This document shows positions 14,910 through 47,866 of a DNA stretch of 64,000 bases, in pieces (position 1 is the stretch's first letter; every line of letters begins with the position of its first letter). The notes below the pieces were generated by a model, which saw only the letters and a list, made by a program, of their open reading frames with translations, was not told the origin of the DNA and searched no databases. The stretch lies in assembly GCF_044324785.1 (NCBI RefSeq), contig NZ_CP172128.1; one strand, 5' to 3'. Origin of the DNA: Escherichia coli. Its GTDB lineage: Bacteria; Pseudomonadota; Gammaproteobacteria; Enterobacterales; Enterobacteriaceae. The position numbers and the translations under genes were made by a program.

Positions 14910-15085
14910 TCAGCCCTGTTTAAACCCCGGCTTGCCGTTTTTGGCTCGCCATTCCTTCACTTCTTTTACGATACCTTCAGGACTGTCCTCACGGTCATCC
15001 CTTGGATAATAAATAAGATCAGAACCATCAGGGTGTTCAGCTAATCGACGAAATTCATCCACTAATTTATCGTCATCAGCCTCAG
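14910..15085 (-). pseudogene. colicin E-type DNase immunity protein (Im family), 3' fragment truncated by IS1
   Basis: minus-strand translation ...[41 protein letters not shown] matches the conserved C-terminus of Im2/Im7/Im9-type proteins; ORF enters IS1 end. Confidence 0.5.
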
Positions 15086-15853
15086 GGTGATGCTGCCAAC
15101 TTACTGATTTAGTATATGATGGTGTTTTTGAGGTGCTCCAGTGGCTTCTGTTTCTATCAGCTGTCCCTCCTGTTCAGCTACTGACGGGGTGGTGCGTAAC
15201 GGCAAAAGCACCGCCGGACATCAGCGCTATCTCTGCTCTCACTGCCGTAAAACATGGCAACTGCAGTTCACTTACACCGCTTCTCAACCCGGTACGCACC
15301 AGAAAATCATTGATATGGCCATGAATGGCGTTGGATGCCGGGCAACAGCCCGCATTATGGGCGTTGTCCTCAACACGATTTTACGTCACTTAAAAAACTC
15401 AGGCCGCAGTCGGTAACCTCGCGCATACAGCCGGGCAGTGACGTCATCGTCTGCGCGGAAATGGACGAACAGTGGGGCTATGTCGGGGCTAAATCGCGCC
15501 AGCGCTGGCTGTTTTACGCGTATGACAGGCTCCGGAAGACGGTTGTTGCGCACGTATTCGGTGAACGCACTATGGCGACGCTGGGGCGTCTTATGAGCCT
15601 GCTGTCACCCTTTGACGTGGTGATATGGATGACGGATGGCTGGCCGCTGTATGAATCCCGCCTGAAGGGAAAGCTGCACGTAATCAGCAAGCGATATACG
15701 CAGCGAATTGAGCGGCATAACCTGAATCTGAGGCAGCACCTGGCACGGCTGGGACGGAAGTCGCTGTCGTTCTCAAAATCGGTGGAGCTGCATGACAAAG
15801 TCATCGGGCATTATCTGAACATAAAACACTATCAATAAGTTGGAGTCATTACC
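15086..15853 (+). mobile_element. insAB: IS1 copy 1 (insA 15141-15416, insB 15335-15838)
   Basis: 768 bp, ends GGTGATGCTGCCAACTTACTG ... GTTGGAGTCATTACC; no flanking 9-bp duplication. Confidence 0.9.
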
Positions 15854-17192: not shown

Positions 17193-18523
17193 TAGACTGG
17201 CCCCCTGAATCTCCAGACAACCAATATCACTTAAATAAGTGATAGTCTTAATACTAGTTTTTAGACTAGTCATTGGAGAGCAGATGATTGATGTCTTAGG
17301 ACCGGAGAAACGCAGACGGCGTACTACACAGGAAAAGATCGCTATTGTTCAGCAGAGTTTTGAACCGGGAATGACGGTCTCCCTTGTTGCCCGGCAACAC
17401 GGTGTGGCAGCCAGCCAGTTATTTCTCTGGCGCAAGCAATACCAGGAGGGAAGTCTTACTGCTGTGGCCGCAGGAGAGCAGGTCGTTCCTGCCTCTGAAC
17501 TTGCTGCTGCCATGAAGCAGATTAAAGAACTCCAGCGCCTGCTCGGCAAAAAAACGATGGAAAATGAACTCCTTAAAGAAGCCGTTGAATACGGGCGTGC
17601 AAAAAAGTGGATAGCGCACGCGCCCTTATTGCCCGGGGATGGGGAGTAAGCTTAGTCAGCCGTTGTCTCCGGGTGTCGCGTGCGCAGTTGCACGTAATTC
17701 TCAGACGAACCGATGACTGGAAAGATGGTCGCCGCAGCCGTCACTCAGATGATACGGATGTGCTTCTCCGTATACACCATGTTATCGGAGAGCTGCCCAC
17801 GTATGGTTATCGTCGGGTATGGGCGCTGCTTCGCAGACAGGCCGAACTTGATGGTATGCCTGCGATCAATGCCAAACGTGTTTACCGGATCATGCGCCAG
17901 AATGCGCTGTTGCTTGAGCGAAAAACCGCTGTACCGCCATCGAAACGGGCACATACTGGCAAAGTGGCCGTGAAAGAAAGCAATCAACGATGGTGCTCTG
18001 ACGGGTTCGAGTTCCGCTGTGATAACGGAGAAAAACTGCGAGTCACGTTCGCGCTGGACTGCTGTGACCGTGAGGCACTGCACTGGGCAGTCACTACGGG
18101 CGGCTTCGACAGTGAAACAGTACAGGACGTCATGCTGGGAGCGGTGGAACGCCGCTTCGGCAACGAGCTTCCGGCGTCTCCAGTAGAGTGGCTGACGGAT
18201 AATGGTTCATGCTACCGGGCTAATGAAACACGGCAGTTTGCCCGGATGTTGGGGCTTGAACCGAAGAACACGGCGGTGCGGAGTCCGGAGAGTAACGGCA
18301 TAGCAGAGAGCTTCGTGAAAACGATAAAGCGTGACTACATCAGTATCATGCCTAAACCAGACGGGTTAACGGCAGCAAAGAACCTTGCAGAGGCGTTCGA
18401 GCATTATAACGAATGGCATCCGCATAGTGCACTGGGTTATCGCTCGCCACGGGAATATCTGCGGCAGCAGGCCAGTAATGGGTTAAGTGATAACAGGTGT
18501 CTGGAAATATAGGGGCAAATCCA
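17193..18523 (+). mobile_element. IS2 copy 1 (insC 17284-17649, insD 17607-18512)
   Basis: 1331 bp, IRL TAGACTGGCCCCCTGAATCTCCAGACAACC, right end ...GGGGCAAATCCA; 5-bp target duplication TTTTG on both sides. Confidence 0.9.
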
Positions 18524-18673: not shown

Positions 18674-19441
18674 GGTAATGACTCCAACTTATTGATAGTG
18701 TTTTATGTTCAGATAATGCCCGATGACTTTGTCATGCAGCTCCACCGATTTTGAGAACGACAGCGACTTCCGTCCCAGCCGTGCCAGGTGCTGCCTCAGA
18801 TTCAGGTTATGCCGCTCAATTCGCTGCGTATATCGCTTGCTGATTACGTGCAGCTTTCCCTTCAGGCGGGATTCATACAGCGGCCAGCCATCCGTCATCC
18901 ATATCACCACGTCAAAGGGTGACAGCAGGCTCATAAGACGCCCCAGCGTCGCCATAGTGCGTTCACCGAATACGTGCGCAACAACCGTCTTCCGGAGCCT
19001 GTCATACGCGTAAAACAGCCAGCGCTGGCGCGATTTAGCCCCGACATAGCCCCACTGTTCGTCCATTTCCGCGCAGACGATGACGTCACTGCCCGGCTGT
19101 ATGCGCGAGGTTACCGACTGCGGCCTGAGTTTTTTAAGTGACGTAAAATCGTGTTGAGGACAACGCCCATAATGCGGGCTGTTGCCCGGCATCCAACGCC
19201 ATTCATGGCCATATCAATGATTTTCTGGTGCGTACCGGGTTGAGAAGCGGTGTAAGTGAACTGCAGTTGCCATGTTTTACGGCAGTGAGAGCAGAGATAG
19301 CGCTGATGTCCGGCGGTGCTTTTGCCGTTACGCACCACCCCGTCAGTAGCTGAACAGGAGGGACAGCTGATAGAAACAGAAGCCACTGGAGCACCTCAAA
19401 AACACCATCATATACTAAATCAGTAAGTTGGCAGCATCACC
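18674..19441 (-). mobile_element. insAB: IS1 copy 2 (inverted relative to copy 1)
   Basis: 768 bp; insA/insB ORFs identical to copy 1; no flanking duplication. Confidence 0.9.
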
Positions 19442-31899: not shown

Positions 31900-33208
31900 T
31901 GAACCGCCCCGGGAATCCTGGAGACTAAACTCCCTGAGAAAGAGGTAAACAGAATGACTAAAAATACTCGTTTTTCCCCCGAAGTCCGTCAGAGGGCGAT
32001 TCGTATGGTTCTGGAAAGTCAGGGCGAATATGACTCACAGTGGGCGGCAATTTGTTCCATTGCCCCAAAGATTGGCTGTACACCGGAGACTCTGCGTGTC
32101 TGGGTACGCCAGCATGAGCGGGATACCGGAGGCGGTGATGGCGGGCTCACCACCGCTGAACGTCAGCGTCTGAAAGAGCTGGAACGTGAAAATCGTGAAC
32201 GCGCCGCAGTAACGATATCCTTCGCCAGGCTTCCGCTTATTTTGCGAAGGCGGAGTTCGACCGCCTCTGGAAAAAGTGATGCCACTGCTGGATAAGCTGC
32301 GTAAGCTGTACGGGGTCGGACGGGTATGCAGTGAACTACATATTGCCCCGTCAACGTATTACCACTGTCAGCAACAGCGACATCATCCTGATAAACGCAG
32401 TGCCCGTGCGCAGCGCGATGACTGGCTGAAGAAAGAGATACTGCGCGTATACGATGGGAATCATCAGGTATATGGTGTGCGTAAAGTCTGGCGTCAGTTG
32501 TTACGGGAAGGAATCAGGGTAGCCAGATGTACAGTGGCGCGCCTCATGGCGGTTATGGGACTTGCCGGTGTTCTCCGGGGTAAAAAGGTCCGCACTACCG
32601 TCAGCCGGAAAGCCGTTGCCGCAGGCGACCGCGTAAACCGTCAGTTTGTGGCAGAACGTCCTGACCAGTTGTGGGTGGCTGATTTTACTTACGTCAGCAC
32701 ATGGCAGGGGGTCGTCTATGTGGCGTTCATCATTGATGTGTTTGCCGGATACATCGTGGGGTGGCGGGTCTCATCGTCTATGGAAACGACATTCGTGCTG
32801 GATGCTCTGGAGCAGGCGTTATGGGCCCGTCGACCGTCCGGCACAGTCCATCACAGTGATAAAGGTTCTCAGTATGTATCGCTGGCCTACACACAGCGGC
32901 TTAAGGAAGCCGGATTACTGGCATCAACAGGAAGTACTGGTGACTCGTATGACAACGCGATGGCGGAGAGCATCAATGGCCTTTACAAAGCGGAGGTAAT
33001 ACACCGTAAGAGCTGGAAAAACCGGACAGAAGTGGAGCTGGCCACACTCACGTGGGTGGACTGGTATAACAATCGACGATTGCTGGAAAGGCTGGGCCAT
33101 ATCCCACCGGCAGAAGCAGAAAAAGCTTATTATGCTTCCATCGGAAACGATGATCTGGCAGCCTGAGTTCACAGATAAAACACTCTCCAGGAAACCCGGG
33201 GCGGTTCA
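31900..33208 (+). mobile_element. IS3-family insertion sequence (orfA 31954-32295, orfB 32276-33166)
   Basis: terminal inverted repeats TGAACCGCCCCGGGAATCCTGG / CCAGGAAACCCGGGGCGGTTCA; orfB with DDE-type transposase hallmarks; orfA/orfB overlap. Confidence 0.8.
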
Positions 33209-34763: not shown

Positions 34764-36094
34764 TAGACTGGCCCCCTGAATCTCCAGACAACCAATATCA
34801 CTTAAATAAGTGATAGTCTTAATACTAGTTTTTAGACTAGTCATTGGAGAGCAGATGATTGATGTCTTAGGACCGGAGAAACGCAGACGGCGTACTACAC
34901 AGGAAAAGATCGCTATTGTTCAGCAGAGTTTTGAACCGGGAATGACGGTCTCCCTTGTTGCCCGGCAACACGGTGTGGCAGCCAGCCAGTTATTTCTCTG
35001 GCGCAAGCAATACCAGGAGGGAAGTCTTACTGCTGTGGCCGCAGGAGAGCAGGTCGTTCCTGCCTCTGAACTTGCTGCTGCCATGAAGCAGATTAAAGAA
35101 CTCCAGCGCCTGCTCGGCAAAAAAACGATGGAAAATGAACTCCTTAAAGAAGCCGTTGAATACGGGCGTGCAAAAAAGTGGATAGCGCACGCGCCCTTAT
35201 TGCCCGGGGATGGGGAGTAAGCTTAGTCAGCCGTTGTCTCCGGGTGTCGCGTGCGCAGTTGCACGTAATTCTCAGACGAACCGATGACTGGAAAGATGGT
35301 CGCCGCAGCCGTCACTCAGATGATACGGATGTGCTTCTCCGTATACACCATGTTATCGGAGAGCTGCCCACGTATGGTTATCGTCGGGTATGGGCGCTGC
35401 TTCGCAGACAGGCCGAACTTGATGGTATGCCTGCGATCAATGCCAAACGTGTTTACCGGATCATGCGCCAGAATGCGCTGTTGCTTGAGCGAAAAACCGC
35501 TGTACCGCCATCGAAACGGGCACATACTGGCAAAGTGGCCGTGAAAGAAAGCAATCAACGATGGTGCTCTGACGGGTTCGAGTTCCGCTGTGATAACGGA
35601 GAAAAACTGCGAGTCACGTTCGCGCTGGACTGCTGTGACCGTGAGGCACTGCACTGGGCAGTCACTACGGGCGGCTTCGACAGTGAAACAGTACAGGACG
35701 TCATGCTGGGAGCGGTGGAACGCCGCTTCGGCAACGAGCTTCCGGCGTCTCCAGTAGAGTGGCTGACGGATAATGGTTCATGCTACCGGGCTAATGAAAC
35801 ACGGCAGTTTGCCCGGATGTTGGGGCTTGAACCGAAGAACACGGCGGTGCGGAGTCCGGAGAGTAACGGCATAGCAGAGAGCTTCGTGAAAACGATAAAG
35901 CGTGACTACATCAGTATCATGCCTAAACCAGACGGGTTAACGGCAGCAAAGAACCTTGCAGAGGCGTTCGAGCATTATAACGAATGGCATCCGCATAGTG
36001 CACTGGGTTATCGCTCGCCACGGGAATATCTGCGGCAGCAGGCCAGTAATGGGTTAAGTGATAACAGGTGTCTGGAAATATAGGGGCAAATCCA
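34764..36094 (+). mobile_element. IS2 copy 2
   Basis: ORFs identical to copy 1; 5-bp target duplication CCTGT on both sides. Confidence 0.9.
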
Positions 36095-37248: not shown

Positions 37249-38058
37249 ATGTCAGGCTCCGTTATACACAGCCAGTCTGCAGCCATGGTACCGGCAGTGT
37301 ATTCTGCCGGACAGTCTGCACAACTTCCTGTTGCCATTGATTATCCGGCAGCTCTGGCACTCCGCCAGATGTCGATGGTTCATGATGAACTGCCGAAATA
37401 TCTGCTGGCTCCCGAGGTGAGTGCCCTGCTTCATTATGTCCCGGATCTGCGCCGCAAGATGCTGCTGGCCACTCTGTGGAACACCGGCGCGCGTATTAAT
37501 GAAGCACTAGCGCTGACGCGGGGGGATTTTTCGCTCACGCCTCCGTATCCGTTTGTGCAGCTGGCCACTCTGAAGCAGCGGACAGAAAAAGCCGCCAGGA
37601 GGGCAGGAAGGATGCCCGCCGGTCAGCAGACTCACCGTCTGGTTCCGCTCTCCGACGCCTGGTACGTCAGCCAGCTGCAGACGATGGTGGCCACACTGAA
37701 AATCCCCATGGAACGGCGTAATAAACGAACAGGCAGGACAGAGAAAGCGCGGATCTGGGAAGTGACGGACAGAACGGTCAGGACCTGGATTGGGGAGGCG
37801 GTTGCCGCCGCTGCTGCTGACGGTGTGACGTTCTCTGTTCCGGTCACACCACATACGTTCCGCCATTCCTATGCGATGCACATGCTGTATGCCGGTATAC
37901 CGCTGAAAGTTCTGCAAAGCCTGATGGGACATAAGTCCATCAGTTCAACGGAAGTCTACACGAAGGTTTTTGCGCTGGATGTGGCTGCCCGGCACCGGGT
38001 GCAGTTTGCGATGCCTGAGTCCGATGCGGTCACAATGCTGAAAAACAGACATGTATAA
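37249..38058 (+). CDS. resD: ResD tyrosine site-specific recombinase (F-plasmid D protein type)
   Basis: 269 aa; tyrosine recombinase C-terminal motifs (HTFRHSYAMHML, GHKSISSTEVYTKV); immediately downstream of ccdB as in F. Confidence 0.8.
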   Translation: MSGSVIHSQSAAMVPAVYSAGQSAQLPVAIDYPAALALRQMSMVHDELPKYLLAPEVSALLHYVPDLRRKMLLATLWNTGARINEALALTRGDFSLTPPYPFVQLATLKQRTEKAARRAGRMPAGQQTHRLVPLSDAWYVSQLQTMVATLKIPMERRNKRTGRTEKARIWEVTDRTVRTWIGEAVAAAAADGVTFSVPVTPHTFRHSYAMHMLYAGIPLKVLQSLMGHKSISSTEVYTKVFALDVAARHRVQFAMPESDAVTMLKNRHV

Positions 38059-38230
38059 TAAGTCACAATTATGAATTGTGATTTCTTCTATAAAAAAGAG
38101 ACCACTGCAATATGTGATCTCTTGTATTATTTCATAATTGTTAAAGCCACTTCACATTATGCTCACATTGTACGGATATATTCGTAATGTTTTTTTATAT
38201 CGAATGAACGACAGAAGTTGTGGAGATTTT

Positions 38231-38584
38231 ATGAAAGTAATTAGCATGAAATTTATTTTTATTTTAACGATTATTGCTCTTGCTGCTGTTTTTTTCTGGT
38301 CTGAAGATAAAGGTCCGGCATGCTATCAGGTCAGCGATGAACAGGCCAGAACGTTTGTAAAAAATGATTACCTGCAAAGAATGAAACGCTGGGACAACGA
38401 TGTACAACTTCTTGGTACAGAAATCCCGAAAATTACATGGGAAAAGATTGAGAGAAGTTTAACAGATGTTGAAGATGAAAAAACACTTCTTGTCCCATTT
38501 AAAGCTGAAGGCCCGGAGGGTAAGAGAATGTATTATGGCATGTACCATTGTGAGGAGGGATATGTTGAATATGCGAATGACTAA
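38231..38584 (+). CDS. cmi: colicin M immunity protein
   Basis: 117 aa with N-terminal membrane anchor; convergent with and adjacent to cma. Confidence 0.7.
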   Translation: MKVISMKFIFILTIIALAAVFFWSEDKGPACYQVSDEQARTFVKNDYLQRMKRWDNDVQLLGTEIPKITWEKIERSLTDVEDEKTLLVPFKAEGPEGKRMYYGMYHCEEGYVEYAND

Positions 38585-38633
38585 TACACTGTTATAAAGG
38601 CTGCATAAAAATGCCGGAACCCCGGCCCTTATA

Positions 38634-39449
38634 TTATCGCTTACCACTTTCTTTAATGTGAATTTCACCAGGAAGCAGTATCTGGTACTCTTTACCAGAA
38701 AACATCGCCCCGAGCCTTGTGAGCGACTCTCCGATAATGCCACGGTGAGTGCTGGCGTTAAAATCATATTTATCATCATATGAACGAACAACGCCATTGT
38801 AAATCCAGGAGCCATTGGCAGAGATAGTTAAAGTACCTTCTGTTTTCAGTGTGATATTACCAAGATATGCACCGGTAATAACATTATAATCACCAGTGGC
38901 ATGTGTGAACTTTGTAGAAACAGGGAATGTACCTACTACACCAGATTTTATAATGTCTTTTATCTGATTAATTTTCATAGGGGAAATTTTAAGACCAATG
39001 TTGGCGATATTAACGCTCCTTTCAGCGCCATTACCCCATAAATAGTGAGCAAGCGCCACAATTGGTGTAGTGACATTACCGCTCATTTGTTTCATATTCA
39101 TTGAGCGATAGTCATATTGACTTGGCGCTGGTTTTGCGAAGTGGTAAGCGTCATAAACGCTTATTCCAGGGTGAAGAACCAGATTTCGGTCGGCGTTACA
39201 GAAGTAACCAATATTTGTCGATATGATCTGCAATGTGAGAGGGTTGCTGGCCCCATGTTTTTTGATGTAATCCTCAAGTTGAGTTAAAGCCTGAAGACAC
39301 ATGTTTGGACTCTGGAAAAAACTATAAACAACCTGGACTAAAAGAGGGCCAGCACCAGGCACATGTGGTGCTGAAAGAGAAAATGCACCATTGCCATAAC
39401 TTGGTAAGTTAGTTGATGGTGATGGTGCATGAACAGTTAAGGTTTCCAT
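38634..39449 (-). CDS. cma: colicin M (lipid II-cleaving bacteriocin)
   Basis: 271 aa from METLTVHAPSPSTNLPSYGNGAFSL.. to ..EIHIKESGKR matches colicin M. Confidence 0.85.
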   Translation of the reverse strand: METLTVHAPSPSTNLPSYGNGAFSLSAPHVPGAGPLLVQVVYSFFQSPNMCLQALTQLEDYIKKHGASNPLTLQIISTNIGYFCNADRNLVLHPGISVYDAYHFAKPAPSQYDYRSMNMKQMSGNVTTPIVALAHYLWGNGAERSVNIANIGLKISPMKINQIKDIIKSGVVGTFPVSTKFTHATGDYNVITGAYLGNITLKTEGTLTISANGSWIYNGVVRSYDDKYDFNASTHRGIIGESLTRLGAMFSGKEYQILLPGEIHIKESGKR

Positions 39450-39690
39450 ACATAACTCCTTATAAGTTAACAAGATAACAGAGTTCGCCGCTGGCTAACG
39501 CCTCCGCCGGCGAACAAACCCCATGAGAGAGGCTCCCCATAACATTGTTTGCCTGATATGCCGTTAAAAATGGTAGGGCAGCTCCTGAACTACCATATAT
39601 AAGATATATATCTGTACACTCCATTAAATACTGGAAATATATTGAGAACTCTGATATATAATCTATATATAAAATACAAAAGGTATATAT

Positions 39691-40218
39691 ATGACCAGCA
39701 ATAAAGATAAGAACAAGAAAGCAAACGAAATATTATATGCATTTTTCATAATCGGGATTATTCCATTAATGGCTATATTAATACTTCGAATAAATGATCC
39801 ATATTCTCAAGTACTGTACTACTTATATAATAAGGTGGCATTTCTCCCTTCTATTACATCATTGCATGATCCCGTCATGACAACACTTATGTCAAACTAC
39901 AACAAGACAGCACCAGTTATGGGTATTCTCGTTTTTCTTTGCACATATAAGACAAGAGAAATCATAAAGCCAGTAACAAGAAAACTTGTTGTGCAATCCT
40001 GTTTCTGGGGGCCCGTTTTTTATGCCATTCTGATTTATATCACACTGTTCTATAATCTGGAACTAACAACAGCAGGTGGTTTTTTTAAATTATTATCTCA
40101 TAATGTCATCACTCTGTTTATTTTATATTGCTCCATTTACTTTACTGTTTTAACCATGACATATGCGATTTTACTGATGCCATTGCTTGTCATTAAATAT
40201 TTTAAAGGGAGGCAGTAA
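39691..40218 (+). CDS. cbi: colicin B immunity protein
   Basis: 175-aa polytopic membrane protein located between cba and cma on the opposite strand. Confidence 0.7.
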   Translation: MTSNKDKNKKANEILYAFFIIGIIPLMAILILRINDPYSQVLYYLYNKVAFLPSITSLHDPVMTTLMSNYNKTAPVMGILVFLCTYKTREIIKPVTRKLVVQSCFWGPVFYAILIYITLFYNLELTTAGGFFKLLSHNVITLFILYCSIYFTVLTMTYAILLMPLLVIKYFKGRQ

Positions 40219-40235
40219 CACTGCCTTCCTTTTAA

Positions 40236-40891
40236 TTATTTTATGATCTTGTGATTCAGCTCATCAACAAATTTATCATCGATAAATGCACCAATAGCAC
40301 CTGCAATAACTACGCCAACAAAACCAACAACTGTGGCCGAAAGACCAAAGGCTATAAGGGCCGAGCCTAATGTCAAAGAAAACAAACTAAGAGCTACAGC
40401 AGATGCCATCCCACTGATAACCCAGGACTCGACTTCCAGCATTAATGGCCCCCAGTTACCAGTCTGGTAACCCTCAATACTCTTCTCCCTGATGTTGTTT
40501 GCCTTTATTGCATAATCTGCTGCTTTGAACGTTTTACCCAACGCAGCAAATTTATTCCCCATATCCTCAGCATTAAATGCTTTCCACGCATTCACAATGG
40601 CTTCTTTGTCCGTTGCATTTATTTTAAGGCTGGGGTTAGCCATTAACTTATTAATGGAAGACATTGCATCATCATAACTACGAATCGTTTTTCCCTGAAA
40701 ATTATTTATATTCTCTGCAATTTCACGGGAAAGCGCCTTGTATTTATCTCCAAGATATTCCCCGACTTTGTCACCGACACTAATGATGACCTCGCTGGTT
40801 TTTGTCAGGACCGTCTTCTCGTCATTTTCTTGTTCTTTCTTGACTCTGAAGTCATCCTTTGCGTTATTTTCGGCTTCCTGGCGCTGGCTTA
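40236..40891 (-). pseudogene. cba: colicin B, C-terminal pore-forming part (gene split by IS1)
   Basis: hydrophobic helical hairpin of pore-forming colicins; reading frame continues upstream to the IS1 end. Confidence 0.8.
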
Positions 40892-40900
40892 AACTATTAC

Positions 40901-41668
40901 GGTGATGCTGCCAACTTACTGATTTAGTGTATGATGGTGTTTTTGAGGTGCTCCAGTGGCTTCTGTTTCTATCAGCTGTCCCTCCTGTTCAGCTACTGAC
41001 GGGGTGGTGCGTAACGGCAAAAGCACCGCCGGACATCAGCGCTATCTCTGCTCTCACTGCCGTAAAACATGGCAACTGCAGTTCACTTACACCGCTTCTC
41101 AACCCGGTACGCACCAGAAAATCATTGATATGGCCATGAATGGCGTTGGATGCCGGGCAACAGCCCGCATTATGGGCGTTGGCCTCAACACGATTTTACG
41201 TCACTTAAAAAACTCAGGCCGCAGTCGGTAACCTCGCGCATACAGCCGGGCAGTGACGTCATCGTCTGCGCGGAAATGGACGAACAGTGGGGCTATGTCG
41301 GGGCTAAATCGCGCCAGCGCTGGCTGTTTTACGCGTATGACAGGCTCCGGAAGACGGTTGTTGCGCACGTATTCGGTGAACGCACTATGGCGACGCTGGG
41401 GCGTCTTATGAGCCTGCTGTCACCCTTTGACGTGGTGATATGGATGACGGATGGCTGGCCGCTGTATGAATCCCGCCTGAAGGGAAAGCTGCACGTAATC
41501 AGCAAGCGATATACGCAGCGAATTGAGCGGCATAACCTGAATCTGAGGCAGCACCTGGCACGGCTGGGACGGAAGTCGCTGTCGTTCTCAAAATCGGTGG
41601 AGCTGCATGACAAAGTCATCGGGCATTATCTGAACATAAAACACTATCAATAAGTTGGAGTCATTACC
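40901..41668 (+). mobile_element. insAB: IS1 copy 3, inserted in cba
   Basis: 768 bp; 9-bp target duplication AACTATTAC (40892-40900 and 41669-41677); minor aa differences from copies 1/2. Confidence 0.9.
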
Positions 41669-42548
41669 AACTATTACTGTCCAGAATCTCCACGGCTGAA
41701 ATATATAGCGGAGAAACTCCACTGCCTTCAGGAAAACGGACAATGACATCATGATTATTACTGGACATCGTATAACCAGCCTCAACATAATTCCCTGTCT
41801 CAGAAATAACGCCATCTTCCTGGATTTCGGGATTAGACCGAACTGGAGTATTCATCTGACCCACACTTAATACCAGGTCCGGTAGATTTGGTGATACAGG
41901 GGCACTGTAAACATCTTTAATATTGGTTCCCGGACGACTCCGGTCCGGAACTGGAACGGCATCCACTACTGGCACTGTCATCGGAATACCTCCGATAATA
42001 GCCATATATTGTGTACCATTCTGCATAAGGTCCGTCAGACGATATTTTACCGGTACATTATTACCCGCTGCTGGTAACTGGCTGGCAGGGATATCCGTTA
42101 CCTGCTCCAGTTGCTGTGTAACCATAAGACGAATAATTTTTTGCTCATTTCCGGAAGCAGGCTCCAGACGGGCAAAAGAAACAGCAGCCGGGCGAGACGG
42201 TTCTGGCAAACCACCACGTAAACCATTTTCAAGAACTGTTCGTGCAGCGGAAACTTTCTCGTTTCCCCAGGGGCTATGCACACTGACAGACCATCCCGAC
42301 CAGTCTCCCTCTTCAAGTTCCTTATCAAGAATAATCCGGCGAATAATTCCAGGAAAAAGAACACTTTGTACAAGTGCGATACCTTGTGGGCTGTAATCCC
42401 CCCATCCCGGAGGCATGGATGGAGCGAGACCTGATGAGCCTCCGGGTTTCACATCACCGCCCGGAATTCGTCCTGTTGACGGCCACACAACCATTGTGTC
42501 CCCGTAATCAATACCTTCTGTCGGTACACTACCTTCATTATCACTCAT
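41669..42548 (-). pseudogene. cba: colicin B, N-terminal translocation/receptor part (gene split by IS1)
   Basis: MSDNEGSVPTEGIDYGDTMVVWPSTGRIPGG..; the two parts minus one duplication copy sum to 1536 bp (511 codons + stop). Confidence 0.8.
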
Positions 42549-42592
42549 AGAAAACCTCTTTGACTTTAAAAACAATCAATTAAAATTAAATA

Positions 42593-42622
42593 CTGTACAT
42601 ATAACCACTGGTTTTATGTACA
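42593..42622. promoter_or_regulatory. overlapping dual LexA (SOS) operator of colicin promoter
   Basis: CTGTACATATAACCACTGGTTTTATGTACAG, the tandem-overlapping SOS-box architecture of colicin promoters, ~45-75 bp upstream of cba start. Confidence 0.7.
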
Positions 42623-42759
42623 GATCAAAAATTACGCCGCTGTGTTTTCTCTGTCAAGACTGTGGATTTCAATTTTTGTGAAAACGATCAAAAAACAGGC
42701 ACTCACACCACGTGCTATTCTCGCCTGATACCACAAAAAACTGCACAAGCATTACTGGT

Positions 42760-43222
42760 CAGGACGGCAGGAAGAATGCCCGCCGGCCAGCAGACTCACC
42801 GGCTGGTTCCGCTCTCGGACTCCTGGTACGTCAGCCAGCTGCAGACGATAGTGGCCACACTGAAAATCCCCATGGAACGGCGTAATAAACGAACAGGCAG
42901 GACAGAGAAAGCGCGGATCTGGGAAGTGACGGACAGAACGGTCAGTACCTGGATTGGGGAAGCGGTTGCCGCCGCTGCCGCTGATGGTGTGACGTTCTCT
43001 GCCCCGGTCACGCCACATACGTTCCGCCATTCCTATACGATGCACATGCTGTATGCCGGTATACCGCTGAAGGTCCTGCAGAGCCTGATGGGGCATAAGT
43101 CCATCAGCTCAACGGAAGTCTACACGAAGGTGTTTGCGCTGGATGTGGCTGCCCGGCACCGGGTGCAGTTTTCGATGCCTGAGTCCGATGCGGTCACAAT
43201 GCTGAAAAACAGACACGCATAA
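42760..43222 (+). pseudogene. resD paralog, 3' fragment (~155 codons)
   Basis: ~90% identical to 37590-38058 including downstream 70 bp; 5' part absent. Confidence 0.65.
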
Positions 43223-43358
43223 TTCATAAATCATAATTATGAATTGTGATTTATTCTGTAAAAAAGAGACCACTGCAATATGTGATCTCTTGTATGCAAG
43301 GGGGCTTAAACAGTATGAATTCACAAGTGTGATTTCATAAGTAATAACTTTTTGATTA

Positions 43359-45873: not shown

Positions 45874-47145
45874 TCAGAATGAAGCAATGGGGATCTCAGT
45901 CCATTGTGTTGTATACGAAGGCGAGAGCATTTCCCGTTTCATTTGCCATTCAGGGGCGGTTCCTCGCCCCGCAAACCACACTTTCCCTTTTCCCGACTGG
46001 TTCAGTTCATCGAGTGTTTTCATTAACTTTTCACTGTTTTTACGGGGCTGGATTTCATCAAATAATCCCGGCTGCGCTATACCCGATGGTGTGAAATCAG
46101 CCAGCATGACTCCTGCCTTCATATAGCGGTACCCTTCACGCCAGACATGGTTTAAGGCTCTGCATGCGGCGGCAATAATGTCCCGGCTGTCCTGTGTGGG
46201 CAATGGAAGCTTTTCCACAGCGGCATTGCTGTAACAGGGTTCTTTTACTGCAAAGGGGGATGTCCGTACAAATGTCGTCACCTGCCGGCAATACTGACGC
46301 TCCCCACGTAGTTTCTCTGCGGCCCGCTCTGCATACTGAACAACAGCCTGGTGCATGGCATCTTTGTCTGTGATTCGTTCACCAAAACTGCGACTACAGA
46401 CAATCTGCTGTTTTGCCGGTGGTGCTTCTTCCAGGGATATGCAGGACTCGCCGTTGAGTTCGCGTACCGTACGCTCAAGAATGACGCTGAAGTTTTTCCG
46501 GATGAATGCCGTGTTAGCCTGCGCCAGCTGCAGTGCTGTGTTAATACCCAGCGCATTCAGCTTTTCCGTCAGTCTGCGTCCTACTCCCCAGACCTCACCA
46601 ACTGGCTGCAGTCCCAGTAGCTTCAAGATCCGATTACGGTTTTCTGCCGTCAGCGCGACCACACCGGAAAACTGTGGCCATTGCTTTGTTGCCCACTGTG
46701 CACTTTTAGCCAGCGTTTTTGTAGGCGCAATGCCCACCCCCATGGTGAGTCCTGTCCAGCTCTTTACCTGTTCCCTGAGCTGATGACCAAAAAACTCCGG
46801 AGAGATGCAATGATTTATCCCCCGCAAATCAATAAACATTTCATCAATTGAGTAGGGCTCAACTGCGGGAGAAAGCGACTCCAGAACAGCCATGACCCGT
46901 TGGCTCATGCTGTGGTACAGCGCATAATTGCTGGAAAATACATGTATTTTCTTCTCCAGGCGCATCTGTCTCACCTGAAACCAGGGCTGCCCCATTCTGA
47001 TGCCAAGGGCTTTTGCCTCCGGGCTGCGCGCGATCACACAGCCATCGTTATTGCTGAGTACGATGACCGGTTCGTTGCGAAGGTCCGGGCGGAAAACTTT
47101 TTCACATGAGGCGTAGAAACTGTTGATATCAGCCAGTGCAAACAT
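45874..47145 (-). CDS. impB: translesion DNA polymerase V catalytic subunit (UmuC/ImpB family)
   Basis: 423 aa Y-family polymerase (MFALADINSFYASCE..., SIDEMF). Confidence 0.85.
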   Translation of the reverse strand: MFALADINSFYASCEKVFRPDLRNEPVIVLSNNDGCVIARSPEAKALGIRMGQPWFQVRQMRLEKKIHVFSSNYALYHSMSQRVMAVLESLSPAVEPYSIDEMFIDLRGINHCISPEFFGHQLREQVKSWTGLTMGVGIAPTKTLAKSAQWATKQWPQFSGVVALTAENRNRILKLLGLQPVGEVWGVGRRLTEKLNALGINTALQLAQANTAFIRKNFSVILERTVRELNGESCISLEEAPPAKQQIVCSRSFGERITDKDAMHQAVVQYAERAAEKLRGERQYCRQVTTFVRTSPFAVKEPCYSNAAVEKLPLPTQDSRDIIAAACRALNHVWREGYRYMKAGVMLADFTPSGIAQPGLFDEIQPRKNSEKLMKTLDELNQSGKGKVWFAGRGTAPEWQMKREMLSPSYTTQWTEIPIASF

Positions 47146-47582
47146 CAGCGTAACTCCCGCGTCCTGTGTATCACGTGAGTGACAACACCAAAAATACAGA
47201 TGTTTTCCGGATACAGTGTGCGGAACTCCGGGCTGTCTGAAACCGGCTCCAGTGCCGGGCGTGGGCGCAACAGCAGTCGTTTGACGGTGAACTCACCGTC
47301 GATCTCAGCGATAACGATGTCCCCGTGTTGTGGTTTTTCGGCCCTGTCCACTACCAGCAGATCACCATTCTGCACGCCAGCCTGGTTCATCGATTCACCG
47401 CTGGCGCGCAGAAAGAAGGTGGCTGCAGGTCTGCTGATGCAATAGCTGTTCAGATCCAGTTCCTGCTCAGCATAATCAGTGGCAGGCGAAGGAAAACCGG
47501 CCTGGCAACGATCGGCAAACAACGGTCGCACGTAACTGTCATCGCCTGAAGGGTCAGCCGGACGGTGATAAACGGTACTCAT
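47145..47582 (-). CDS. impA: UmuD/ImpA-like self-cleaving SOS protein
   Basis: 145 aa, S24 peptidase (LexA-like) domain with Ser/Lys dyad region (ASGESM ... FTVKRL). Confidence 0.8.
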   Translation of the reverse strand: MSTVYHRPADPSGDDSYVRPLFADRCQAGFPSPATDYAEQELDLNSYCISRPAATFFLRASGESMNQAGVQNGDLLVVDRAEKPQHGDIVIAEIDGEFTVKRLLLRPRPALEPVSDSPEFRTLYPENICIFGVVTHVIHRTRELR

Positions 47583-47826
47583 GCTGCAGGCAGCCAGCTG
47601 TCGTCCTGCCAGATTTCTTCCAGCAGAGACAGGATACGTTCTTTATCCTTGTCGTTGCGGGCTCCTGTGACAGATACAGACGGGGCGCTGCCCTGGTCTA
47701 TACGCAGCCAGATTTCCGGGTAGTGTGGTTTCAGACGTTGTTCGATTTCATTCTGTAGCGCCTGAAGTGTGCCTGATTTGAGGTTTTTGTGCTCTGGCGG
47801 TCGAAAAGAATTTCAATGCGGATCAT
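47579..47826 (-). pseudogene. impC: impC-like small ORF with apparent frameshift
   Basis: ATG at 47826 encodes MIRIEILFDRQSTK then stops; a second frame continues to a stop overlapping impA start; frames join at an A/T5 homopolymer near 47783-47787. Confidence 0.45.
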
Positions 47827-47848: not shown

Positions 47849-47866
47849 GCTGTATGTATATACAGT
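47849..47866. promoter_or_regulatory. LexA (SOS) box upstream of impCAB
   Basis: GCTGTATGTATATACAGTA, perfect CTGT-N8-ACAG. Confidence 0.75.

Follow-up and report, generated by a model that had tools for sequence, protein, structure and literature searches.

What becomes of a plasmid locus encoding two colicins when an insertion sequence lands in the first of its toxin genes? This question is raised by a stretch of 64,000 nucleotides of Escherichia coli DNA (contig NZ_CP172128.1, RefSeq assembly GCF_044324785.1), to which we refer below as the window. Its positions 38231-42657 carry a complete colicin B/M (ColBM) module, consisting of cmi, cma, cbi, cba and the SOS promoter of cba, and in this module cba is interrupted by an IS1 element. 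An earlier, sequence-only reading of the locus had described the insertion as precisely reversible and had expected it to abolish colicin B activity, to lower expression of colicin M and to leave immunity to both toxins in place. We conclude that the locus very probably holds a loss-of-function allele of cba, created by a single transposition of IS1 into codons 291-294 of the gene, within a standard ColBM module carried by a conjugative IncK2/Z lineage found mostly in poultry.

IS1 insertion in the colicin B gene

The inserted element belongs to the IS1 family, as evidenced by its size, inverted repeats, frameshifted open reading frames (ORFs) and 9-bp duplication of the target (Table 1). Its termini read GGTGATGCTGCCAACTTACTGAT... 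and ...GGTAATGACTCCAACTTATTGAT (reverse complement). On the plus strand, insA occupies 40956-41231 and the insB' frame 41150-41653, and the A6C motif for -1 frameshifting, TTAAAAAACTC, is located at about 41206-41216 of the window. RefSeq labels the element as an IS1-like element IS1A family transposase with programmed frameshift.

Both ends of IS1 are abutted by the same nine bases, AACTATTAC, a match that would arise by chance with a probability of about 4^-9. The gene is uninterrupted in NZ_CP025329.1 and CP027674.1, and at the empty site of the latter the 9-bp overlap shows AACTATTAC only once. When the two parts of cba are joined and one copy of the duplication is removed, 1536 bp remain, corresponding to 511 codons and a stop, and the product of the gene rejoined in silico matches the crystallised colicin B of PDB 1RH1 at all 511 positions. 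The original description of the split gene is thereby confirmed in full.

As encoded in the window, cba is a colicin B pseudogene, from which the full-length pore-forming protein of 511 residues cannot be read. The N-terminal ORF comprises 293 residues of colicin B followed by a single tryptophan and meets a stop one codon into IS1 (...DSNSW*, 294 amino acids); the boundary of the translocation and receptor-binding region of colicin B has been placed at about 290 amino acids (PMC6723558). The 3' fragment is labelled in RefSeq as an incomplete 'colicin-like pore-forming protein'. Since all 1536 bp and the promoter are present, the allele is distinct from the truncated cba type of Christenson and Gordon, in which a short 3' remnant is left and the SOS promoter is missing.

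Table 1. Features of the ColBM module and its borders in the window, and IS1-adjacent deletions of related plasmids projected onto window coordinates
Feature	Positions	Strand	Remarks
IS1 (IS1A type)	40901-41668	+ (opposite to cba)	768 bp; both terminal inverted repeats, insA, insB', A6C frameshift motif
Target-site duplication, copy 1	40892-40900		AACTATTAC; directly abuts IS1
Target-site duplication, copy 2	41669-41677		AACTATTAC; directly abuts IS1
cba 3' fragment	40236-40900	-	Promoterless pseudogene piece; codons ~291-511, pore-forming domain
cba 5' fragment	41669-42548 (ORF 41664-42548, into IS1)	-	Translocation/receptor-binding region, behind intact promoter
cba SOS promoter (predicted)	42593-42657	-	-35 TTGACA 42652-42657, 17 nt, -10 TAATTT 42629-42634; two overlapping LexA boxes 42593-42623
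cmi, colicin M immunity	38231-38584	+	Intact, 117 aa; also named cmi by RefSeq
cma, colicin M	38634-39449	-	Intact, 271 aa; 270/271 identical to PDB 2XMX
cbi, colicin B immunity	39691-40218	+	Intact, 175 aa, full length
Predicted hairpin upstream of cma	39484-39516	-	GC-rich, 35 nt before cma start codon, stem 8-9 bp
Degenerate LexA-box-like site	39629-39648		TACTGGAAATATATTGAGAA; in cma-cbi divergent spacer; 15/20 consensus matches, GAG replacing CAG
Predicted hairpin between convergent cbi and cba stop codons	40204-40232	both	13-bp stem; strongest of the locus
Bracketing direct repeat (~530 bp), left copy	37596-38127	+	3' end of resD-like tyrosine recombinase gene and downstream palindrome-containing site
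Bracketing direct repeat, right copy	42760-43295	+	Truncated resD-like gene
Deletion in pEF5-18-41_2	39797-40900		Most of cbi and the pore-domain half of cba gone
Deletion in pTB-nb2	38141-40900		cmi, cma, cbi and 3' half of cba gone
Deletion in pF1022-2	~38011-40900		
Deletion in pNDM_M25631H	41669-41872		204 bp of cba 5' fragment gone

Distribution of the interrupted allele

We searched 5426 complete E. coli genomes for both junctions of the insertion. Records with the left cba/IS1 junction numbered 15 (14 genomes), those with the right junction 17 (16 genomes). All seven plasmids for which replicon typing was at hand are conjugative and of the IncK2/Z type; chickens in Switzerland, China, Pakistan and Laos were the source of five, and the other two, one Japanese and one without a stated origin, have no recorded host. 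Sources listed for the junction matches also include black kite, human and food animals. The window itself is nearly identical to plasmid pLH10-b-1-A, from which it differs by two additional IS2 copies and a few single-nucleotide polymorphisms.

The recurrence of the junctions bears on a trivial explanation, namely that IS1 was misplaced during assembly of a repeat-rich plasmid. The window does contain three copies of IS1, and such an error is thus imaginable in principle. We nevertheless give it next to no credence, since the 9-bp duplication is exact at both junctions and these recur in 14-16 complete genomes that come from several countries and were assembled independently.

In RefSeq, the two halves of cba are already marked as pseudogenes, each incomplete, on either side of an IS1A transposase. 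To lose colicin B activity while keeping colicin M is, moreover, a recurrent published pattern, as the work of Christenson & Gordon 2009 is rendered in later papers (PMC6795089, PMC7772137, PMC2994835). Our literature search found no paper on the cba::IS1 allele of IncK2/Z plasmids. The allele is known from deposited, annotated records and represents nothing new in kind.

Intact genes of the module

The remaining three genes, cma, cmi and cbi, are all of full length, as the sequence-only reading had stated. Their layout is that of ColBM loci, with cba and cma on the minus strand, cbi and cmi on the plus strand, each immunity gene convergent with its toxin gene, and no lysis gene, in agreement with published descriptions (PMC8469651, PMC6723558). 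Residues 20-117 of Cmi differ from PDB 4AEQ by a single conservative change of D to E. Judged by its length and the motif of its catalytic domain, the cma product is predicted to be colicin M, the lipid II-degrading toxin. Its sole difference from the crystallised protein, T216I (codon at 38803), lies outside the catalytic DDKYD motif (...YDDKYDF...) and is, among the loci compared, private to the window, pLH10-b-1-A and pE16-3.

Cbi carries the substitution S19F (codon at 39746), present in every plasmid of the IS1 lineage and in no other locus compared. Consistently, proteins 100% identical to this Cbi were found in PLSDB on plasmids of the IS1 lineage only.

Expression of colicin M behind the insertion

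The effect of the insertion on cma depends on where cma is transcribed from. That cma stands under the cba SOS promoter (Pcba) is a standard statement of the literature (PMC8469651, PMC2994835). In the window, the region upstream of cba appears to be a typical SOS-regulated colicin promoter, in which a predicted sigma-70 promoter is followed by two overlapping predicted LexA boxes reading CTGTACATAAAACCAGTGGTTATATGTACAG on the minus strand. Promoter and boxes are base-for-base the same as in the intact locus NZ_CP025329.1, so that the operator is indeed undamaged, as had been proposed.

The 241-bp spacer between cma and cbi (39450-39690) contains no CTG-N10-CAG box, which bears out the view that cma has no obvious SOS box of its own. 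The only candidate is the degenerate site TACTGGAAATATATTGAGAA, which stands alone, is the same in three locus types and resembles part of the cba operator; it is probably not functional and may be a vestige. On the cma strand of the spacer, there is likewise no promoter with at least 9 of 12 consensus matches, and an independent SOS promoter of cma is thus not predicted there. Likewise, Kamensek et al. (PMC2994835) detected neither an SOS motif nor a consensus promoter upstream of cma, and still observed uniform low-level expression of a cma-gfp fusion.

Elsewhere in the window, a perfect LexA box, CTGTATGTATATACAG, is located at 47850-47865, just upstream of an operon of dinI-like, umuD and Y-family polymerase genes (45874-47746, minus strand), which constitutes a plasmid SOS mutagenesis operon. 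The pattern CTG-N10-CAG occurs 43 times in the whole window, against 17 +/- 4 occurrences expected from dinucleotide shuffles; this excess is likely due to abundant CTG and CAG codons, not to LexA sites.

A transcript started at Pcba reaches cma only by crossing the whole of cbi in antisense. In the interrupted locus, the untranslated RNA between the premature stop and cma would extend over about 2.2 kb, as against about 0.8 kb where cba is uninterrupted. Insertions of IS1 are classically polar in both orientations. Between Pcba and cma, the only sustained stretch in which C exceeds G (rut-like) lies in the antisense-IS1 RNA (~41640-41300), a composition that favours Rho loading and fits a polar effect on cma. 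Long, untranslated and C-rich, this RNA should favour Rho-dependent termination. Nor did we find, at the left end of IS1, an outward hybrid promoter of at least 8 of 12 consensus matches directed towards the 3' half of cba and cma. Given the stop one codon into IS1 and the Rho-favouring RNA behind it, the SOS-inducible input of Pcba into cma would be largely lost.

The proposed state of the locus can be described as follows. SOS induction would yield only the 294-residue N-terminal fragment, devoid of toxicity, and no pore-forming colicin B would be made. Colicin M would still be produced from the cma-cbi spacer at a weak, SOS-independent level, and both immunities should remain. That the host would be colicin B-negative and yet immune follows directly from the structure of the locus.

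Predicted hairpins

Two predicted hairpins lie on the way from cba to cma. The stronger one, between the convergent stop codons of cbi and cba, has a folding energy of -21.1 kcal/mol (z -5.8) on the plus strand and -16.4 kcal/mol (z -4.9) on the minus strand. For cbi, it has the form of a canonical predicted terminator. On the cba strand, its U tract is poorer (tail UUUAAAAUAUUU), and partial read-through towards cma is plausible.

The second hairpin, located between cbi and cma, does exist as first noticed, and it had been suggested to modulate read-through into cma. This role is weakly supported at best. The folding energy of this hairpin is -18.9 kcal/mol alone and -20.7 kcal/mol in context, only 1.7 to 2.0 standard units below that of shuffled sequences (z -1.7 to -2.0, cma-sense strand), its tail UCUGUUAUCUUGUU is interrupted and a terminator scan made no call there, so that it does not look like a clean terminator. 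It persists in both haplotypes of the region, with one stem pair broken or re-registered in pSMS35_130, which stands for the common type with truncated cba, and no compensatory change was seen between these two haplotypes, the only ones available for a covariation test. In AR_0085, an IS1414 copy is inserted within this hairpin (~39490-39500).

A scan against Rfam (E<=1) over 38100-42750 gave no match in the locus, and neither did a scan of the whole window at gathering thresholds. The only Rfam match of the window is an ALIL pseudoknot (RF01497, 107.8 bits) at 32234-32350, the frameshift element of an IS3-family transposase, which RefSeq marks as frameshifted.

How much of colicin M expression depends on Pcba?

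Several observations weigh against the proposed state of the locus as set out above. The strong hairpin behind cba may already stop many cba transcripts in the intact arrangement. Among the 5426 genomes, full-length cma together with its upstream region is present in 434, the uninterrupted cba junction in 127, and Pcba, at no less than 95% identity, in only about 156 records. Roughly two thirds of cma-bearing genomes thus lack Pcba, and cma is usually maintained without it; this implies that the effect of IS1 on colicin M may be small, and the insertion may alter colicin M output very little. Finally, retention of both immunities is not certain, in view of the lineage-private S19F change in Cbi. 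Christenson and Gordon reportedly found immunity to colicin B to be non-functional in strains from which cba had been lost.

In its full form, the objection says that IS1 is neutral for colicin M, cma being served essentially by a weak constitutive promoter of its own within the spacer and read-through from Pcba being negligible even in intact loci. The genome counts, the hairpin following the cba stop codon and the uniform low cma-gfp expression without SOS motifs all speak in its favour. So does the finding, credited to Christenson & Gordon 2009 by PMC7772137, that colicin M is secreted without an SOS box. In the related plasmid p135-1, furthermore, the cba operator and -10 hexamer are mutated while cma is intact. 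On the other hand, reviews place cma under the SOS promoter of cba (PMC8469651), the cma strand of the spacer offers no promoter of the strength sought, and the hairpin between cbi and cba lacks a good U tract on the cba strand, making read-through plausible. On balance, we regard neutrality as a serious though somewhat doubtful possibility.

The claim that cma is expressed by read-through from cba therefore stands in part. It conforms to the textbook model, to the lack of an SOS box in the spacer and to the rut-like composition of the antisense-IS1 RNA; strict dependence of cma on Pcba is weakened by the weak cma-gfp expression, the secretion of colicin M without an SOS box and the genome counts.

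Reversion versus decay

With both cba halves undamaged and Cbi and the promoter present, a cell in which IS1 had been excised precisely would be viable, immune and able to produce colicin B. In this formal sense the insertion is reversible, as had been claimed, and one could imagine a switch in which excision of IS1 between the 9-bp repeats restores colicin B in a subpopulation protected by Cbi. The mutation-free halves, which rejoin into a wild-type gene, and the retention of cbi and promoter are what such a switch would require. We consider it extremely improbable. IS1 is rarely excised precisely, the event being due to slippage independent of transposase. No precise-excision revertant was found among the relatives examined, and the right-hand junction is unchanged in 16 genomes. 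Among the best plasmid matches, none is a close relative that carries an intact cba in this context, the sole same-context match being a 98%-identical IncF plasmid. To call the insertion precisely reversible is thus an overstatement, because the same holds for almost any insertion sequence flanked by a target duplication.

What relatives of the window do show is irreversible damage. Four independent deletions adjacent to IS1 were identified, each of which keeps one end of the element exactly (Table 1). Plasmid pPK8275 carries a +1 frameshift in cma and a nonsense codon, E327*, in the 3' half of cba, and AR_0085 has acquired its IS1414 copy upstream of cma. Where such deletions or E327* have occurred, excision can no longer restore cba. 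In p135-1 (NZ_CP080261.1), which has an intact cma, the promoter-proximal LexA box has lost its CAG through a G>T change at the equivalent of 42623, and the cba promoter has an A>G change in its -10 hexamer, at the equivalent of 42631. These changes fit relaxed selection on the promoter following the death of cba. The cba::IS1 allele is not a switch; it acts as a one-way entry into degradation.

The same plasmids allow us to judge whether the 294-residue fragment might be useful in itself, as a secreted or cell-bound FepA/TonB-binding decoy that blocks colicins B and D of competitors, their uptake of enterobactin or enterobactin piracy, which would account for its survival in deletion derivatives and would make the allele a case of neofunctionalisation instead of a simple knockout. 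The fragment equals the translocation and receptor-binding region (~290 residues, PMC6723558), is encoded by an open frame behind an intact SOS promoter and has been retained in pTB-nb2 and pF1022-2, where the rest of the module is lost. The predominance of deletions on the opposite side of IS1, three out of four, is not statistically meaningful, however, and the fragment is damaged in pNDM_M25631H (by 204 bp), whereas in p135-1 its operator and -10 hexamer are mutated. No release mechanism is known for it, and truncated proteins are usually degraded. A function of the fragment is therefore very unlikely, and a plain loss-of-function allele subject to further decay is the reading we prefer.

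Surroundings of the module

The whole ColBM module is enclosed by two direct repeats with resD-like recombinase sequence, which are about 94% identical by local blast. This arrangement points to recombination, site-specific or homologous, as the means by which the module was captured or moved. The IncF plasmid CP027674.1 carries the same 7-kb block.

Two further IS1 copies, at 15086-15853 (plus strand) and 18674-19441 (minus strand), are 99.7% identical to the one in cba. Their ends bear no matching 9-bp duplications, so that rearrangements were probably involved. The copy at 15086 and that in cba have the same orientation, and their recombination could remove about 25 kb, with cma among the genes lost. 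Next to the end of the same copy (14910-15062, minus strand) we detected the last 50 residues of an immunity protein of the E-type (DNase) colicins, annotated in RefSeq as a partial pseudogene without N-terminus; it is a second bacteriocin-related remnant adjoining IS1 on this plasmid.

The two IS2 copies (17193-18523 and 34764-36094), neither of which is present in pLH10-b-1-A, are 100% identical to each other and flanked by 5-bp duplications, TTTTG and CCTGT, respectively. The IS2 junction at 34764 occurs in none of the 5426 genomes.

Discussion

The module of the window closely resembles the pColBM type, as represented by pColBM-Cl139 and the intact locus NZ_CP025329.1. The four genes, their order and orientations are the same, as are the SOS promoter with two overlapping LexA boxes, the absence of a lysis gene and the flanking resD-like recombinase sequence, and the proteins are 99-100% identical to the crystallised ones. 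It differs in that cba is split by IS1 and that the backbone is IncK2/Z, not IncF.

In its outcome, the allele resembles the ColBM/ColV plasmids with truncated cba (Christenson & Gordon 2009; pSMS35_130), in which colicin B is likewise lost, cma and cmi are kept and cbi is kept at least in part; this truncated state is the commonest one among cma-bearing E. coli genomes. The truncated plasmids, however, retain a short 3' remnant of cba beside microcin V genes and have lost the SOS promoter, whereas the window retains the whole gene and its promoter, with IS1 between the halves. The insertion thus represents an independent route to the loss of colicin B.

A second parallel is provided by the classical polar insertions of IS1 into the gal and lac operons, which share with cba::IS1 the 768-bp element, the 9-bp duplication, the position in a promoter-proximal gene and a distal gene on the same strand. 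By analogy, Rho-dependent polarity would be expected here as well, and the frequent deletions adjacent to the element that keep one of its ends have their counterpart in the four relatives described above. Unlike in those operons, the distal gene cma lies 2.2 kb away across an antisense gene, and it seems to have some promoter activity itself, if weak (PMC2994835).

The finding, a well-known toxin gene knocked out by IS1, changes little. Its value consists in adding one more independent route by which colicin B is lost and colicin M kept. The same insertion, present in about 19 related plasmid records, also forms a natural time series, leading to adjacent deletions and point lesions and not to reversion. 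Dependence of cma on Pcba is asserted by reviews, and the evidence consulted for it is thin. An isogenic pair of plasmids, one with IS1 present and the other with IS1 cleanly excised, would be a convenient gauge of the share that Pcba has in colicin M expression.

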